Shown in pieces: positions 1-5,114 of a DNA stretch of 5,114 nt. The stretch lies in sequence record NZ_CP110401.1; one strand, written 5' to 3'. Origin of the DNA: a plasmid. The notes under the pieces are model-generated. The model searched no databases and had not been told where the DNA came from. It saw only the letters and a list, made by a program, of their open reading frames with translations. The position numbers and the translations under genes are program-made. Within the stretch, counting starts at the first letter, position 1, and each line of letters opens with the position of its first letter.

Positions 1-135
1 TGTCTTTTTGCGTTTTTTGCGACAGAAAGCGACTGAGGGCGTTTTAAGGGGGGCGCACAACGGGAGTTATGGTAAATGGATCGGGTTTGCGGGAAGACTC
101 GACAGGTTTTGTCGTTGGGGGTAGTGTAAGCGACT

Positions 136-245
136 GAAAAACAAACGCCCCTGAAATTCGTGTCTATCCGGCAAGACTTTCACGAAGATACAGGGGCGAT
201 GTCGGTCGATAACCTGGAAGGAATCGTAACACATGAGCGCCGCGC
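136..245 (-). ncRNA. Putative RNAI-like antisense RNA complementary to the rep mRNA leader. The 3' end is defined by a nested hairpin at 146-198 plus a T-run, and the 5' end is approximate.
   Basis: The + strand 'cgcccctg' (146-153) pairs with 'caggggcg' (191-198). An internal 'ttcgtg'/'cacgaa' inverted repeat sits between them. On the minus strand the structure is followed by 'GTTTGTTTTTC' (complement of 136-145), the layout of a rho-independent terminator. ColE2-family plasmids are known to control Rep translation with an approximately 115-nt antisense RNAI against the rep 5' UTR. No promoter could be pinned down. Confidence 0.35.
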
Positions 246-1168
246 TTCAATACTTCGAAGAAAATTTACCTCACCGTCCCTATCACACGGATGAGCTCGC
301 TTTCGGTCTTCGTATCTCCGGCAAAGGGCGTGCGCTGCTTGCTCGCTACATCCAGCAAAATCAGCCTCATGCGCAGTTCTGGCTGGTTTTTGACGTTGAC
401 CGCGTAGGAGCTGCGATTGACTGGAGCGACCGGAACGCCCCCGCGCCGAACATCACCGTAAAAAATCCCGAGAACGGGCACGCTCACCTGCTCTACGCGC
501 TCAATCTTGCCGTGAGAACCGCGCCTGATGCGTCGGTTAAGGCGCTGAAATACGCCGCTGCAATTGAACGTGCGCTGTGTGAGAAACTTGACGCAGATGT
601 GAACTACAGCGGACTGATTTGCAAAAATCCGTTCCACCTGGAATGGCAGGTGATGGAGTGGCGCGAGGAAGCCTACGCCCTCGATGAACTGGCTGATTAT
701 CTCGATTTGAGAGCCTCAGAGCGTCGTAGCGTCGATAAACATTACGGGCTGGGGCGAAACTGCCATCTGTTCGAAATGACGCGCAAATGGGCTTACAGGG
801 CGATTCGGCAGGGCTGGCCAGCATTCTCACAGTGGCTTGATGCTGTGATTCAGCGTGTCGAAATGTACAACGCATCGCTTCCCGTTCCGCTTTCTCCGCC
901 TGAATGTCGGGCTATTGGCAAGAGCATTGCGAAATACACGCACAGGAACTTCACGCCGGAAAGTTTCGCACAGTATGTGGCTGATACGCACACACCAGAA
1001 ATACAGGCCAAGAGAGGCCGGAAAGGTGGCATCGCTAAAGGCGAAGCCTACGATGACAAGCGTTTCATGGCGCTATGTATGCTGGAGAATGGATATTCTC
1101 AGAAAGCTATTGCGGCGATGCTGAATGTACATCGTAATACGATCCGTAATTGGGCAATGCACAAATAG
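233..1168 (+). CDS. rep: ColE2-family plasmid replication initiator Rep (plasmid-specified primase). C-terminal ori-binding region present.
   Basis: 311-aa ORF with an ATG start and a TAG stop. The protein shows strong recalled similarity to ColE2/ColE3 Rep (N-terminus 'MSA.LQ.F...LPH.PY', then 'ARYIQQNQPHAQFWLVFDVDR', 'NITVKNPENGHAHLLYAL', 'YSGLICKNP', 'YGLGRNCHLFE', 'RQGWP.FSQWLDAVIQRVEMYNASLPVPLSP.ECRAIGKSIAKYTHR'). A 'ggaagga' Shine-Dalgarno sits at 216-222. A ColE2-type origin follows immediately 3' of the stop codon. Confidence 0.9.
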   Translation: MSAALQYFEENLPHRPYHTDELAFGLRISGKGRALLARYIQQNQPHAQFWLVFDVDRVGAAIDWSDRNAPAPNITVKNPENGHAHLLYALNLAVRTAPDASVKALKYAAAIERALCEKLDADVNYSGLICKNPFHLEWQVMEWREEAYALDELADYLDLRASERRSVDKHYGLGRNCHLFEMTRKWAYRAIRQGWPAFSQWLDAVIQRVEMYNASLPVPLSPPECRAIGKSIAKYTHRNFTPESFAQYVADTHTPEIQAKRGRKGGIAKGEAYDDKRFMALCMLENGYSQKAIAAMLNVHRNTIRNWAMHK

Positions 1169-1213
1169 CCTATATCAGATAACAGCGCCTTTTCGGCGTC
1201 TTTTTGAGCAGCG
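1169..1213. other. ColE2-type origin of vegetative replication. Rep binds here and makes the short primer RNA.
   Basis: 'cctatatcagataacagcgccttttcggcgtctttttgagcag' lies 1 bp after the rep stop. It closely matches the recalled ColE2-P9 minimal ori motif '...TATCAGATAACAGCGCC(C)TTTTGGCGTCTTTTTGAG...'. It has the same position relative to rep as in ColE2/ColE3. Confidence 0.75.
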
Positions 1214-1254
1214 GGCTTTCCGGCGGTTTTCTCCTTTCAGCCCAGCAATGGTGC

Positions 1255-1331
1255 GGCTTACCGTATGATTGAGGTGGTCGTGCTCGCCGCAGTCTCATGA
1301 CCGAGCGTAGCGAGCGAATGAGCGAGGAAGC
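1255..1331. other. ColE1-like single-strand initiation / primosome assembly region (n'-pas/ssiA homolog) for lagging-strand priming.
   Basis: 'accgtat...ttgaggtgg..gctcgccgcag......gaccgagcgtagcgagcgaatgagcgaggaagc' aligns almost colinearly with the pBR322/pUC segment just downstream of the ColE1 ori ('aaccgtatt...ttgagtgag...gctcgccgcagccgaacgaccgagcgcagcgagtcagtgagcgaggaagcggaagagc'). PriA (factor Y/n') sites have been mapped in that segment. ColE2-type plasmids are reported to carry an ssiA of this kind. Confidence 0.45.
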
Positions 1332-1361
1332 ACCAGGGAACTGGAACGTGAACGGAGGCTC

Positions 1362-1808
1362 TTACGCACTGTCTTTGGTGAGTAGCTCTTTCCCGCGTTT
1401 TTCCCATTCCTGCCATTTTGGATGGTTGTGCGGTAGCTCTGCGATTCCTGCGAGTGCGCCTACCAGTTCGGCAGCACTAAACTTTGGCTTTCCGGTTTTG
1501 CTGTCCACCAGTCCTGCCACAATCATGAGGCCTGCGGCCTTGTAGAGTTCATGATCCCGCGCCTTTCGTTCCGCCCTTGCGGCTGCCTTCCGTTCTGCCG
1601 CTATGATTGCCGTTACTCTGGCTTTTGCTGCGGCTGCTTTCTCTGCGGTTTTTTCTGCCCGTATCAGTGCGGACAACGTTTTTTCATCCGTCGTTGTTCG
1701 GTTTTTTTTCTCTGCCAGTAACACAAGTAATCTCTGCTGCTCTGATGGTGATTTCAGTCCGTTGATGTAGGCAATTTTTGCACTTAACCACTCTTCACGA
1801 TTTGTCAT
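1362..1808 (-). CDS. mobC: Mobilization accessory protein, MobC family (RSF1010-type relaxosome/oriT strand-opening protein). The start is probably the internal ATG at 1808. The longest ORF extends to 1895.
   Basis: The C-terminal part ('AAERKAAARAERKARDHELYKAAGLMIVAGLVDSK') resembles RSF1010 MobC ('ERKNETRRKVLVGAMILAKV...'). The gene is divergent from a MOBQ relaxase gene with an oriT-like site between them, as in RSF1010. 'gcaGAGGTaaga' precedes the ATG at 1808 (M-T-N-R-E-E-W...). The upstream in-frame ATG at 1895 has no obvious Shine-Dalgarno. Confidence 0.7.
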   Translation of the reverse strand: MTNREEWLSAKIAYINGLKSPSEQQRLLVLLAEKKNRTTTDEKTLSALIRAEKTAEKAAAAKARVTAIIAAERKAAARAERKARDHELYKAAGLMIVAGLVDSKTGKPKFSAAELVGALAGIAELPHNHPKWQEWEKRGKELLTKDSA

Positions 1809-1920
1809 TCTTACCTCTGCACTTTTGCCGTTAATGTGAGTTGTTATTATGCATAATATCACCTTGTTTGCCTGCGTGTGAGACCGTAAAATCATCCATG
1901 ATTAATTCAGGGATGCGCAC

Positions 1921-1965
1921 TTAGTAGTTTCTCTCCTTCGTCGAGAAACTGTGCGCTCCTGCGGA
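1921..1965 (+). other. Origin of transfer (oriT), RSF1010/MOBQ-like, with an inverted repeat followed by a nick-region motif.
   Basis: Perfect 8-bp inverted repeat 'agtttctc' (1926-1933) and 'gagaaact' (1943-1950) with a 9-nt spacer. Then 'gtgcg|ctcct' (predicted nick near 1955/1956). Compare RSF1010 oriT 'CCAGTTTCTCGAAGAGAAACCGGTAAGTGCG|CCCTCCC'. It sits between divergent mobC and mobA, as in IncQ plasmids. Confidence 0.6.
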
Positions 1966-1979
1966 GGGCTAAAAGGCAG

Positions 1980-3530
1980 ATGGCAAGCTACCATTGCACT
2001 GTCAAAGCTGGAGCAAAAGGCAGTGCCTTAAAACATGCTGATTACATTTCCAGATCCGGCGAATATAAGAGTTACAAATCGCGGGAGGATCTGGAATTTT
2101 CGTCATCCGGTAACATGCCATCATGGGCGAAGAAAAATCCCGCAGAGCTATGGAAAGCCGCAGATGAATTTGAACGAAAAAACGGGACTGCATACCGTGA
2201 AATTGAGATCGCGTTACCGCGTGAACTGACACGCGAACAACGGATAGAACTTGTTGAAGATTTCGTGCAAAAGGAACTTGGCGATCGCCATGCCTACCAG
2301 TACGCGATCCACAATCCGCCAGGTGCAATCGACGGAAAGGAACAGCCACACGCGCATATCATGTTTTGCGAGCGGATTAATGATGGTATTGAACGCGATC
2401 CACAGCAATTTTTTAAACGTGCCAACAGCAAATCACCAGAGCGGGGAGGCGCAAAAAAAGCGAGTATTCCCCAGACAGCCGGAGAGCGAAAAGCCGCCCT
2501 TGTTGCGCTGCGTTCCCGCTGGGCAGATGTGCAGAATGAGCACCTTGCGCGACACGGTCACGAGTCGCGCGTAGATCATCGTTCTCTGAAAGAACAGGGT
2601 ATCAATCGCACGCCGGAAGTTCATCTTGGCCCCGTTCAGGCCGCCAGTCTGAATGGGGAGCAGATTGTTGCAATCCAGGAACGGAGGAATGCCGAGCGGG
2701 AACTCAAGACCGCCAGAGATGCCGCAAATGCCATTCAGCAGGAACAGGAGCAAAAGCAAAAAATCAAGGCAGTTGAGCCTGTTCGTTCAGCCCGTTCACC
2801 GGAGTTATTGCTTCAGTACCGCAAGGTTATGAAAACGGTCATTCAGGGAGAGGCAAGGCTTGCTCGTTTAGGGGATGCCAATCCCAATGCGCTCAAAGAA
2901 CATAAGCTGCTTCAGAATGCGAAAGCTAAAAAAGACTCTCTTTCCGAATGGAGTAGACGAATATATGAAGGGGCACGGTATTTAGACAAACTGGGGCGTA
3001 ATGTTGTTTCCGCACAAAGGGAGCTGCGGGAGCTACAGGAACAACGCAATGCTTTGAATGGGATTCGTGGCCTGTTTCGGGGGGCTGACAAAAGGGAGAT
3101 TGATGCGCGTATTCTGGAGCAAAAAAGTGTGCTGGAAACCGCTGAACATGAAAGGAATGAATTCAGGAACAAGCTACAGCAAGCCGAATCCGAGTGGGAC
3201 AAAGAAAACGCTGCTTTTAAGCGTACCGAGGGATATAAGTACGTTGGGGAGCTGGACAGGTACAGAGAACGCGAGATTCTGGCGGCGGCATCTTTAGAGA
3301 ACACCAGGCAAAAGGTTGCTGAAGAGGTATCCGTTGCCCGTAGCCAGATGTTATCTCTGGAGCCTGAACTCAGTATATCTGGAGATGAAAAAGCTCAAAT
3401 GCGACATGAGTTACTGGCAGAAATGGCGCAGGAACGGCAGCAACAGGAGGAAAAAGCACTGTGTATACAGCGATCCTGGGCCAGGGGGGTATCACGTAGT
3501 AACGAACGTGATCAAGATATGGAGCGTTGA
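1980..3530 (+). CDS. mobA: MOBQ-family conjugative relaxase (MobA/MobL domain) with a long charged, coiled-coil-like C-terminal extension and no primase domain.
   Basis: 516-aa ORF. The N-terminus 'MASYHCTVKAGAKGSALKHADYISRSGEY' parallels RSF1010 MobA 'MAIYHLTAKTGSRSGGQSARAKADYIQREGKY'. Predicted catalytic Tyr is Y22 (RSF1010 Y25). Histidine-triad motif 'HAHIMFCERINDG' compares with RSF1010 'HCHLMISERINDG'. Also 'GGAKKA', 'RVDHRSLKEQGI.RTPEVHLGP'. An 'aagg' Shine-Dalgarno lies 3 nt before the ATG. Confidence 0.9.
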   Translation: MASYHCTVKAGAKGSALKHADYISRSGEYKSYKSREDLEFSSSGNMPSWAKKNPAELWKAADEFERKNGTAYREIEIALPRELTREQRIELVEDFVQKELGDRHAYQYAIHNPPGAIDGKEQPHAHIMFCERINDGIERDPQQFFKRANSKSPERGGAKKASIPQTAGERKAALVALRSRWADVQNEHLARHGHESRVDHRSLKEQGINRTPEVHLGPVQAASLNGEQIVAIQERRNAERELKTARDAANAIQQEQEQKQKIKAVEPVRSARSPELLLQYRKVMKTVIQGEARLARLGDANPNALKEHKLLQNAKAKKDSLSEWSRRIYEGARYLDKLGRNVVSAQRELRELQEQRNALNGIRGLFRGADKREIDARILEQKSVLETAEHERNEFRNKLQQAESEWDKENAAFKRTEGYKYVGELDRYREREILAAASLENTRQKVAEEVSVARSQMLSLEPELSISGDEKAQMRHELLAEMAQERQQQEEKALCIQRSWARGVSRSNERDQDMER

Positions 3531-3568
3531 AAATGTAGCAATATCGGGACTGCGCCCCGAACCCCGCC

Positions 3569-3616
3569 AACGTTTCACGGAACGCGAAAAAATTCCGCGT
3601 CCCGTGAAACGTTTTC
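3569..3616 (+). terminator. Long interrupted hairpin between convergent genes. It is the likely transcription terminator for mobA and possibly bidirectional.
   Basis: 'aacgtttcacgg' (3569-3580) is the exact reverse complement of 'ccgtgaaacgtt' (3602-3613). An inner 5-bp extension ('acgcg'/'cgcgt') gives about a 17-bp stem with one mismatch and an A/T loop. 'gttttctg' runs out of the 3' arm on the + strand. Confidence 0.45.
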
Positions 3617-3688
3617 TGAATGAGAAAAATTGTCGTTTTGATTTACTCACAGTTCAGATTAATGAAGTTAACAGGTGTTAAATATTTG

Positions 3689-3714
3689 CAGGTGGTTATA
3701 TGTGTAACCACCTG
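3689..3714 (-). terminator. Hairpin just downstream of the lipoprotein gene stop. It is the candidate terminator for the minus-strand cargo transcript.
   Basis: Perfect 10-bp inverted repeat 'caggtggtta'/'taaccacctg' with a 6-nt loop, 11 bp after the stop (3726). On the minus strand it is followed by A/T-rich 'caaatatttaac'. The U-tract is weak. Confidence 0.35.
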
Positions 3715-3725
3715 TAAGGGAAGGA

Positions 3726-4826
3726 CTAAAACTTAGTGCAATCTTCTATTTTATAATAAATACTATTTTTTATTGATGTTACAAAGTCCCGAGGTATTTG
3801 ATTTTTGCTGTAGTTAATGTATGCATATTGCAATAGTTGTTTATGAAAGTTTTCAGCTCTATTCTTTCCCTGAAAATTATATGTCAACACCCCATCTAAA
3901 TAATCAACTCCTCCGGTATCTGTTACAAACCAGTAATAGGTTAATTTGACATCTGAGATATTTAGTTTTTTCCTACAATCATTTAACTTTTCACCTATTT
4001 CTATATTGTGTTTTTTTAAATCAGAAATTATTTGAGGTGCTCTATCTTGGCTTCTTTTGTAGATATTTAGAAAGTTATCATCAAAGTATATATTTGTTTT
4101 TTTTATGCATTCATCTGCGTTCTCACAGGGGGGGACACGTTCGTAGAAACCGGGGAAGTTTTTAGTTATTAATGGTGATGCATTTTTCTTAAACGATTGA
4201 TATACTTTATATATATGCTTTTCGCATGATTCTTTTGCATACTCTTCACTTACATCACGCCAACTGTAACTATCGGCAGATTGAATGTATTCGTACCCAC
4301 CACAAATTTCATTTAGCGCATTGTCATTATGGTCCTTTAGATATAGCATTCTGTCTAAATAAGGGCTAATTGTGAGTTTGCTATATATCATTGGATCTTC
4401 ATTAAAAGCACTGTTTAGCTTTCTTATATGATCTATTATGACCTCTTTTGTTTTTTCCACCAGAGGCGTTTTCTGTTTGTATTCCTCTAGTGATTCATTG
4501 GTTGATTTTATGCTGTTGTTATTTTGTGCTATAGAATATTCAGCCTTATCTTCAGGTTCTTGCATAATGGCTGAATTTATTATTTTTAGGCCACTTTCAC
4601 TAATATCACAGGTATATGTGACGATGGTTCTTCCTCGATCATCCTCTTTTTCACTCCATGTGCCATTGATGCAATCACTCCTTGTATCGAAGGCTTTACC
4701 AACAGTCATTGAGTCGTCAATGTCGTAATATACGAAAGACTTTACCTTGCTTATTCCATCAGAGTCGCATCCTGAAATAAAAAATGACGACAATAAAGGA
4801 AGGATATGTTTAAAGTTAATATTCAT
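3726..4826 (-). CDS. AT-rich cargo gene for a cysteine-rich predicted lipoprotein of unknown function, with Asp at +2 (inner-membrane retention signal). The start is probably the ATG at 4826 (MNINFKH...). Alternatives are the ATG at 4835 or the TTG at 4850.
   Basis: 374-codon open frame. The N-terminus 'MNINFKHILPLLSSFFISGC|DSD' has a basic n-region, a hydrophobic core and a lipobox-like 'ISGC' with D at +2. The mature part has about 10 Cys and many N/K/Y/D. A weak 'ggga' Shine-Dalgarno precedes the ATG at 4826. G+C is markedly lower than in the backbone. Terminated by a hairpin. I recognise no conserved enzymatic motif. Confidence 0.75.
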   Translation of the reverse strand: MNINFKHILPLLSSFFISGCDSDGISKVKSFVYYDIDDSMTVGKAFDTRSDCINGTWSEKEDDRGRTIVTYTCDISESGLKIINSAIMQEPEDKAEYSIAQNNNSIKSTNESLEEYKQKTPLVEKTKEVIIDHIRKLNSAFNEDPMIYSKLTISPYLDRMLYLKDHNDNALNEICGGYEYIQSADSYSWRDVSEEYAKESCEKHIYKVYQSFKKNASPLITKNFPGFYERVPPCENADECIKKTNIYFDDNFLNIYKRSQDRAPQIISDLKKHNIEIGEKLNDCRKKLNISDVKLTYYWFVTDTGGVDYLDGVLTYNFQGKNRAENFHKQLLQYAYINYSKNQIPRDFVTSIKNSIYYKIEDCTKF

Positions 4827-4880
4827 TTTTCCCATTTTTATTTCTAACAATAACGAGGAAATATTAATACAGGCGATATG

Positions 4881-5114
4881 TTAATGGAATCCATACATAC
4901 CGATAAACCGACTTACTATGTTTGTGCTCAACGTCTTACGCAGTTCGAAAAGATTTCGCACCAGTTCACCTTTTTCTGGATGAGAAAGTTTGCTGTTTTG
5001 ACCTGTTCGCTGTTCAAAACGAGTGAAACCGGACATGAATCGCTTTCGTGCATAGTTATGCAGCCCCCTGAAAACAATTCTGGCGCGTTTTTTTGGTCTG
5101 GCCTGTTGTTTCCC
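4881..5114 (-). CDS. Partial ORF (3' end only; open to the window edge) upstream of and co-oriented with the lipoprotein gene. Hypothetical basic protein.
   Basis: The minus-strand frame is open from 5114 to the TAA at 4883-4881 and translates as '...GKQQARPKKRARIVFRGLHNYARKRFMSGFTRFEQRTGQNSKLSHPEKGELVRNLFELRKTLSTNIVSRFIGMYGFH*'. It would also work from the internal ATG at 5036 (51 aa). It ends 46-55 bp before the lipoprotein start. The composition is protein-like, but an overlapping + strand frame (4878 to end) is also open, so the call is uncertain. Confidence 0.3.
   Translation of the reverse strand, partial: GKQQARPKKRARIVFRGLHNYARKRFMSGFTRFEQRTGQNSKLSHPEKGELVRNLFELRKTLSTNIVSRFIGMYGFH

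Follow-up and report, generated by a model that had tools for sequence, protein, structure and literature searches.

TraT is an outer-membrane, surface-exposed lipoprotein of conjugative plasmids, and PrgA, encoded by the Enterococcus plasmid pCF10, has a known role in exclusion and is built as a coiled-coil hairpin stalk that carries a globular head. The AcrA-type periplasmic adaptors are inner-membrane lipoproteins with Asp at position +2, the N- and C-terminal segments of which form a membrane-proximal domain that sends an antiparallel alpha-hairpin into the periplasm. The Wzz/FepE co-polymerases have a membrane-proximal alpha/beta base and a helical hairpin of about 100 angstroms, and Wzz is the cargo of the small Shigella plasmid pHS-2. 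Here we analyze a lipoprotein gene on a 5,114-nucleotide (nt) stretch of DNA (sequence record NZ_CP110401.1), which as a whole is referred to as the window and which is a complete circular ColE2-type/MOBQ plasmid of Shigella/E. coli. We find the gene to be intact and constrained by selection. Its product belongs to an undescribed protein family, the hallmark of which is a split alpha/beta base domain (residues ~26-76 and ~288-366) and which is restricted to mobile elements among the contexts examined.

Llp and Cor, together with TraT, appear to be the nearest functional analogues of the window protein, and the periplasmic adaptors, Wzz and PrgA the nearest architectural ones. Like the window gene, Llp (phage T5) and Cor (phi80/N15) are single accessory genes of mobile elements that encode lipoproteins. 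Acting from the periplasmic side, they stop an incoming agent, as we propose the window protein may do. A preprint describes Llp as a small lipoprotein of the outer membrane's inner leaflet that binds FhuA (bioRxiv 10.64898/2026.03.26.714494). Unlike Llp and Cor, the window protein has a mature length of 346 amino acids (aa), an Asp+2 inner-membrane signal and a long helical stalk, and it shows no sequence or PHROG similarity. TraT and the window protein are both plasmid-borne envelope lipoproteins, although in the window case the benefit to the carrier is only proposed; the predicted membrane and architecture differ, and the window plasmid has no transfer apparatus. Membership in TraT (PF05818) or an Eex-type exclusion family was rejected, as no Pfam, NCBIfam or PHROG match was found.

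The architectural resemblances are judged from structural models. The AcrA-type adaptors would share with the window protein the same out-and-back chain topology, as well as Asp+2. The window protein differs from them in having a helical head at the tip of the hairpin and no pump genes nearby, and no HlyD, lipoyl, beta-barrel or MP domain of a periplasmic adaptor or membrane-fusion protein (MFP; HlyD/AcrA) is found by Pfam. Wzz/FepE resemble it in combining an alpha/beta base with a helical hairpin. Unlike Wzz, it has no transmembrane helices, a lipid anchor only, and a soluble C-terminus (...YYKIEDCTKF) that is not hydrophobic. Membership in the polysaccharide co-polymerases (PCP) fails on an hhalign probability of 0.1-0.2% against E. 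coli WzzB and on the lack of a Pfam Wzz match, and no PCP occurs among the structural matches listed. PrgA is likewise a plasmid-encoded hairpin stalk bearing a head, but this is an analogy only: PrgA is Gram-positive and LPXTG cell-wall-anchored, its stalk is much longer and its head CAP-like, and no similarity to it was detected in the window protein. An Rz-type i-spanin was also considered and rejected, given a PHROG match at the coiled-coil level only (E=0.26), a lipid rather than a transmembrane anchor, and a plasmid without a lysis cassette. No model of a known anti-phage defense system in PADLOC-DB is matched at E<=1. Two lipoprotein-region candidates from the E. coli K-12 island CP4-57 fare no better: the hhalign probability is 38.7% for the lipoprotein YfjS, limited to the signal peptide and first residues, and 0.2% for YfjT. 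Since all of these memberships failed (TraT/Eex, PADLOC, spanin, MFP, Wzz and YfjS/YfjT), the family is regarded as uncharacterized.

Broader searches lead to the same result. An earlier note on this DNA, made from the sequence alone, had recognized no motif in the protein, TraT/Eex signatures included, and had proposed a profile search; no characterized family is matched by the window protein in Pfam, NCBIfam, PADLOC or PHROGs, where coiled-coil noise is the most that appears, and the PDB, queried both by sequence and by profile, returns only coiled-coil noise (E>0.01). A word-indexed search of 5.8 billion proteins yields four clusters only. With an exhaustive hmmsearch of 1.84 billion representatives and a threshold of E<=1e-3, the number rises to 320 clusters, full-length relatives making up about 15 of them, and a Pfam scan of 72 diverse family members found no domain. 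Scans of genomes and metagenomes added Budvicia and further copies of the same plasmids only. One apparent member, P0077 (5477 aa, with what seemed to be eight repeats of the N-terminal motif), was discarded as spurious, its score being the sum of weak matches to He_PIG-like Ig repeats (...LPxGLSxDxxxGxISGxP...).

Alignments show that family members are laid out as a lipoprotein signal peptide, the N-terminal half of the base, a helical insert and the C-terminal half of the base, all of which are present in the window protein. The N-half carries the signature VK..D.S.T.G.A..R..C....W...D.RGR.IV.Y.C. Among 18 full-length members, K29, A45, R49, C52, W57, R66, Y71, C73, W299, A335 and Y336 are invariant or nearly so, and Cys52 and Cys73, which probably form a disulfide, are invariant in both the full-length and the broad-family alignments. 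The insert enters the split base at one fixed point, and its length ranges from about 0 (P0040, 193 aa; P0041, 184 aa) to about 550 residues (P0057, 679 aa). In the window protein, it comprises an antiparallel stalk with helices of 65 and 51 residues and a four-Cys helical head of about 95 residues. An AlphaFold2 (AF2) model of the window protein, with a predicted local distance difference test score (pLDDT) of 77, starts with a tether that is disordered as far as about residue 36. A helix with two strands follows at 39-75, the helical head spans 145-230 between the two stalk helices, and three strands plus terminal helices occupy 290-362. At 1.5 angstroms per residue, the modeled stalk would be about 8-10 nm long, and with tether and head its tip could stand about 10-15 nm off the inner membrane. 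Budvicia aquatica encodes both a full-length member (P0155, 400 aa, loci L019/L020) and a head-less paralogue (P0014, 227 aa, locus L011), the bases of which are 77% identical over the aligned part, a natural head-deletion experiment. The AF2 model of P0014 (pLDDT 86) has the same base and a shorter hairpin.

The N-terminus of the 366-aa prolipoprotein, MNINFKHILPLLSSFFISG followed by Cys20, fits the PROSITE PS51257-type rule and marks the protein as a bacterial lipoprotein and substrate of Lgt/LspA. A lipobox is also found in 126 of the 149 retrieved family members that start with Met. The lipobox-like ISGC signal peptide and the mature C-D-S start with Asp+2, both claimed in the earlier note, are borne out (the start reads CDSDG), and so is its description of the protein as Cys-rich. 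Its count of around 10 cysteines in the mature protein is too high: there are nine in all (20, 52, 73, 175, 201, 234, 240, 284 and 363), of which eight follow the lipidated Cys20. These eight make four plausible pairs, predicted as 52-73, 175-201, 234-240 and 284-363, which fits an oxidizing periplasm. The Lol-avoidance signal of E. coli lipoproteins is an Asp at +2 that no basic residue adjoins, and the +3 residue is then usually D, E or Q (PMC6469965). The window protein departs from that preference, having Ser at +3. A CD[SDG] start is shared by most of the best-scoring full-length relatives, and by members on Providencia and Klebsiella plasmids. The protein is therefore predicted, from its N-terminal residues, to be retained in the inner membrane facing the periplasm.

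Selective constraint was assessed by comparing the window gene with three alleles by the Nei-Gojobori method, in terms of the ratio of nonsynonymous to synonymous rates (dN/dS). The allele of Escherichia albertii (92% aa identity in the codon alignment, 90.3% by tblastn) gives an overall dN/dS of 0.18, that of an IncFII plasmid (79% in the codon alignment, 78% by BLASTP) 0.23, and that of sibling Col156 plasmids, called the 51% allele and 53% identical in the codon alignment, 0.25. The constraint is unevenly distributed. It is strongest in the N-terminal base (0.06-0.12, the lowest of all regions), followed by the C-terminal base (0.09-0.18), and weaker in stalk and head together (0.23-0.50). 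The head and the descending stalk helix diverge most between alleles; the head has only 38% aa identity to the P0003 allele, with a dN/dS of 0.30-0.42, and window positions 3987-4377 cannot be aligned by blastn to the 51%-allele plasmids. The frame is intact in all three diverged alleles, so the disruption that was envisaged as grounds for dismissing the gene did not materialize.

The open reading frame (ORF) itself, at 3726..4850 on the minus strand, was correctly recognized and is intact, but its start was probably placed too far upstream. Counted from the TTG at 4850, the frame encodes 374 aa. The ATG at 4826 (366 aa, MNINFKH...) is the likely start, and is the one NCBI uses in the plasmids pBS512_5 and pCS14-2; an alternative ATG at 4835 (MGKMNINF...) is used in the E. 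albertii record. At least 1000 public contigs, which come from S. sonnei, E. coli and Salmonella, encode an identical protein that is always labeled 'hypothetical', 'uncharacterised' or 'Lipoprotein', and the 51% allele is found on 673 contigs. Among 5426 complete E. coli genomes, the module that holds the gene occurs in 23, in every case on a small plasmid and never on a chromosome. The 51%-allele plasmid is present three times per record in NZ_CP095537.1 (15,727 bp) and NZ_JBYGZT010000003.1 (10,182 bp), which look like multimers, formed either in vivo or by assembly.

The gene stands out by composition. Its G+C fraction is 0.327, versus 0.514 for window positions 1-3600, with a range of 0.18-0.52 and a mean of 0.33 over 60-nt windows, and family genes fall below their flanks in G+C at all 13 loci at which genomic contexts were compared. 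An unrelated IncFII plasmid (L005/L006) has exactly window positions 3636-4902 in common with the window, at 84% identity. Because the match is confined to this segment, what moves as one unit is the gene plus flanks of 76 nt on its upstream and 90 nt on its downstream side, or 1.27 kb. The proposal that the gene is AT-rich and horizontally mobile is thus upheld. On either side of the cargo lies a copy of a diverged direct repeat, which is backbone sequence found just downstream of mobA. Cargo-less siblings of 3.9 kb have a single copy; positions 3369-3554 of one of them (L008) match both sides of the cargo. The left edge of the cargo also has a hairpin (3569-3613), the 21-nt arms of which are 90% complementary, and the bracketing repeat and hairpin look like a recombination hot-spot or cargo-exchange slot of Col156-type plasmids. 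Inside the module, a hairpin just past the stop codon lacks a U-tract and is a candidate terminator or mRNA stabilizer, although a terminator scan made no call for the lipoprotein gene, this hairpin included.

It had also been suggested that the protein may work with the product of the ORF upstream, a suggestion that does not hold. Nearly all of this 51-aa ORF (4881-5036, minus strand) falls in the backbone, beyond the mobile module. In-frame stops interrupt it in the E. albertii plasmid (L003) as well as the 51%-allele plasmids (L007, L009 and L010), and it is not beside any other family member at any of the loci examined. As a partner, it is ruled out by these in-frame stops and by its position. 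Nor does an all-versus-all comparison of flanking ORFs from the 13 loci reveal a universal partner or conserved toxin, so that the recurring toxin or defense neighbors for which the earlier note had advised looking are not conserved across these loci. A polytopic membrane protein of about 160-173 aa with weak similarity to DUF4234 adjoins the gene only in the Budvicia/P0154 branch, and not in the window or the other small plasmids. In L017, its gene is on the opposite side of the lipoprotein homolog. This DUF4234-like protein may be a branch-specific partner.

The contexts of the family are otherwise diverse. Members are the sole cargo of small plasmids with three unrelated backbones, namely Col156 (two alleles), a 3.9-kb Rop-type plasmid of Klebsiella and a 4.1-kb plasmid of Providencia. 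The IncFII copy adjoins a ParE toxin-antitoxin pair and insertion sequence remnants, and additional members are found on Halomonas megaplasmids. In Lelliottia, Budvicia and metagenomic Enterobacterales, members reside in CP4-57/CP4-44-like integrative islands, with a P4-type integrase, AlpA, DUF3987, YagK/YfjJ, a YeeP/YfjP-like GTPase, RadC and CbeA/CbtA. Within such islands, the variable regions contain McrBC, restriction-modification (R-M), SNF2/ResIII, radical-SAM, AAA_15/21, Cap4/MComp1 and GTPase-centered conflict genes, and some of the islands also hold autotransporters, Hcp or Rhs modules. The islands at L004, L016, L017, L019 and L021, for instance, carry SmaI R-M, Cap4/MComp1/CTD1, GAP1-N1/DO-GTPase/GASH/GAAD and a radical-SAM pair; several neighboring ORFs there have no Pfam domain and may be further uncharacterized cargo. 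In a phage-like integrative element (L022), a member is flanked by the integrase on one side and a repressor-type regulator on the other, with a RecE-like exonuclease next to it, and a myophage contig (L015) with tail sheath and virion proteins contains one member.

The remainder of the window is backbone. Besides the lipoprotein gene, the plasmid encodes a Rep, a TraD-like protein and a relaxase (Table 1). That the lipoprotein gene is the only cargo of a ColE2/MOBQ plasmid, as had been stated, is confirmed by Pfam, by the annotation of near-identical plasmids and by PLSDB, which types these plasmids as Col156 and MOBQ. Plasmid pBS512_5 of Shigella boydii CDC 3083-94 (5,114 bp) is 99.4% identical to the window from end to end, pCS14-2 of S. 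sonnei is 99.6% identical, and a 5,132-bp plasmid of E. albertii is 95% identical. A 121-aa ORF at 3316-3681 (plus strand) is in another frame, overlaps the 3' end of mobA and extends beyond it, and has no family match.

Table 1. Features of the window and of related loci (positions refer to the window unless a locus is named).
Feature	Position	Strand	Details	Basis
ColE2-type Rep	233-1168		PF03090 + PriCT_1	Pfam
TraD-like accessory protein	1362-1895	minus		Pfam
MobA/MobL relaxase	1980-3530			Pfam
Left copy of diverged direct repeat around cargo	3601..3656	plus	71% identity to 4961-5016	
AT-rich mobile module	3636..4902		gene + 76 nt upstream + 90 nt downstream	G+C 0.327; IncFII plasmid match
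Hairpin	3689..3714	minus	perfect 10-bp stem, 6-nt loop, 14 nt past stop codon	-15.3 kcal/mol, z = -4.3
Lipoprotein coding sequence	3726..4826	minus	366-aa prolipoprotein; stop codon 3726-3728 included	NCBI annotation of near-identical plasmids, dN/dS
C-half of base domain	3729..3965	minus	residues 288-366; three strands + helices, motif W.V.D.GG...G...AY.....IP..Y, Cys363	alignments, AF2
Descending stalk helix	3966..4118	minus	residues 237-287 (51), Cys284 near end	AF2, dN/dS
Helical head	4119..4403	minus	residues ~142-236; Cys175, Cys201, Cys234, Cys240	AF2, pLDDT 58-87
Ascending stalk helix	4404..4598	minus	residues 77-141, single 65-residue helix	AF2, pLDDT 85-97
N-half of base domain	4599..4751	minus	residues ~26-76; family signature, Cys52/Cys73	alignments, dN/dS, models (helix + two strands)
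Signal peptide and lipobox	4767..4826	minus	residues 1-20; ISG/C, Cys20 codon 4767-4769, then D-S-D	PROSITE-type lipobox rule
Right copy of flanking direct repeat, backbone side	4961..5016	plus	71% identity to 3601-3656	
DUF4234-like protein genes	L016 5534-6055; L021 9197-9718; L017 11315-11797; L019 7519-8028; L011 623-1132			

A lone, fast-evolving, membrane-anchored gene that has been acquired repeatedly by plasmids, islands and phage-like elements is best fitted by a periplasmic exclusion or protection factor. On these sequence features, we tentatively favor the view that the window protein acts by itself in the periplasm as an envelope barrier of the superinfection-exclusion type. The lipid anchor and a disordered tether of about 16 residues would keep the conserved base next to the inner membrane on its periplasmic side, where it would bind a conserved host component or self-assemble. 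The stalk would then project the fast-evolving head into the periplasm by some 10-15 nm, so that the head might intercept an agent crossing this compartment, phage tail tips or ejection proteins being the leading candidates, and the interception would protect the host and hence the plasmid. Head and stalk would diverge fastest because they would set specificity. The earlier note had surmised that the gene may be an immunity, exclusion or defense determinant, and the recurrence as lone cargo, the islands with defense genes, the phage-like element and the myophage contig are consistent with that idea.

Several results weigh against this proposal. The link to defense genes exists at the level of the island only, and these islands carry every kind of cargo, autotransporters included. 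The window protein matches none of the PADLOC families at E<=1, no other family member matches a PADLOC model, and the PHROG search of the window protein gave nothing significant. Four divergent queries of 50,697 cultured phage genomes and two pattern scans of IMG/VR turned up no homolog, so carriage by phages is rare. An insert that varies from nothing to about 550 aa speaks against a periplasmic reach of set length, and the alignments behind the AF2 models were shallow, with 4 and 11 sequences. No positive selection was seen on the head, as no regional dN/dS among the three alleles exceeds 1 and the highest is 0.50. Across the wider family, the +2 residue is a mixture (Gly 45, Asp 23, Ser 20), which makes the predicted retention in the inner membrane a trait of the subfamily rather than of the family. 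Lastly, a promoter scan found no consensus sigma-70 promoter upstream of the gene, so its expression is a prediction, and silencing of such AT-rich DNA by H-NS is possible.

Alternatively, the protein might be an envelope or host-interaction fitness factor that operates outside genetic conflict, the base modulating envelope architecture, stress signaling or a host envelope machine to the advantage of enteric hosts. A highly conserved base implies a conserved, probably host-encoded partner. The carriers, which for the most part are pathogens or commensals of the gut (S. sonnei, S. boydii, Shiga toxin-producing E. coli, E. albertii and Salmonella), agree with such a role, as do the autotransporter adhesin gene close by in L004 and L011 and the surface factors that CP4-44/57-type islands carry in the same region. 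We nonetheless consider it unlikely. The fast-evolving head and the distribution on mobile genetic elements (MGEs) only are more typical of a conflict gene, the plasmid is found in just 23 of the complete E. coli genomes with no chromosomal copy, and an inner-membrane lipoprotein, not being exposed at the surface, could hardly confer serum resistance of the TraT/Bor type. If the head is instead taken to bind a toxin, the protein could be an orphan that confers immunity or tolerance to a toxin active in the periplasm or passing through it, for example a Tol/Ton-dependent colicin or an effector of type VI secretion (T6SS) or contact-dependent inhibition (CDI). Many periplasmic immunity proteins are, as this protein is predicted to be, periplasmic, disulfide-rich and membrane-tethered. 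In related ColE2-type MOBQ4 plasmids, the cargo slot normally holds colicin-immunity-lysis operons (bioRxiv 10.1101/726927), and in L004 and L019, Hcp and Rhs/DUF4123 modules are less than 10 kb away. These Hcp and Rhs genes are, however, divergently placed rather than operonic, and none of the 13 loci has an adjacent toxin gene. The window protein and 72 relatives match no Pfam immunity family, and a mature protein of 346 aa with a long coiled coil is atypical, all of which makes this role quite improbable.

Entry or surface exclusion, by which the protein would lower the entry of DNA from conjugative donors, is suggested by the location of the gene on a plasmid and by precedents among exclusion proteins, which include lipoproteins (TraT and TrbK) and the coiled-coil stalk and head of PrgA in Enterococcus. 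The carrier plasmids have no mating-pair apparatus, their cargo-less siblings have the same mobilization genes, some relatives reside in non-conjugative islands or on a phage, and no TraT or Eex-type match exists in Pfam or PHROG; we regard this function as very unlikely. The chance that the ORF is a non-functional hitch-hiker or an annotation artifact is slighter still and close to negligible. It has no recognizable promoter or known domain, and its AT-rich setting offers weak support at best, long ORFs being rarer rather than commoner in AT-rich DNA. Set against this are a dN/dS of 0.18-0.25 with saturated dS, persistence of the intact gene in three diverged alleles and of the family in about 320 clusters, a confident AF2 fold, and conservation of the lipobox and the Cys pair.

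Should the preferred reading, exclusion or protection at the periplasmic face, hold, the protein would represent a structurally new form among the known envelope exclusion factors that MGEs encode. A bolder version, which is conceivable but which we hold to be somewhat doubtful, makes it the founding member of a family of stand-alone mobile-element lipoproteins in which a split-base scaffold bears stalks and heads of any length as interchangeable specificity modules, for the envelope exclusion of phages or of further agents that cross the periplasm, colicins or T6SS effectors for example. If this is true, it would explain the persistence of 'cryptic' small plasmids in S. sonnei, E. coli and Salmonella, and a block to phages would be relevant to phage therapy against Shigella.

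Small mobilizable plasmids of this sort are found very often in the genomes of clinical Shigella, E. coli and Salmonella. That genes of this family were picked up independently by three unrelated small-plasmid backbones and by islands with defense genes argues that they pay their way. The determinant is a single 1.3-kb gene with natural allelic variants of the head, and is at once common, unstudied and cheap to test. Knowing the activity of the lipoprotein would explain the upkeep of a widespread plasmid type, and would add a structurally new single-gene envelope module, a split base with a variable stalk and head, to the protection and fitness factors encoded by MGEs.

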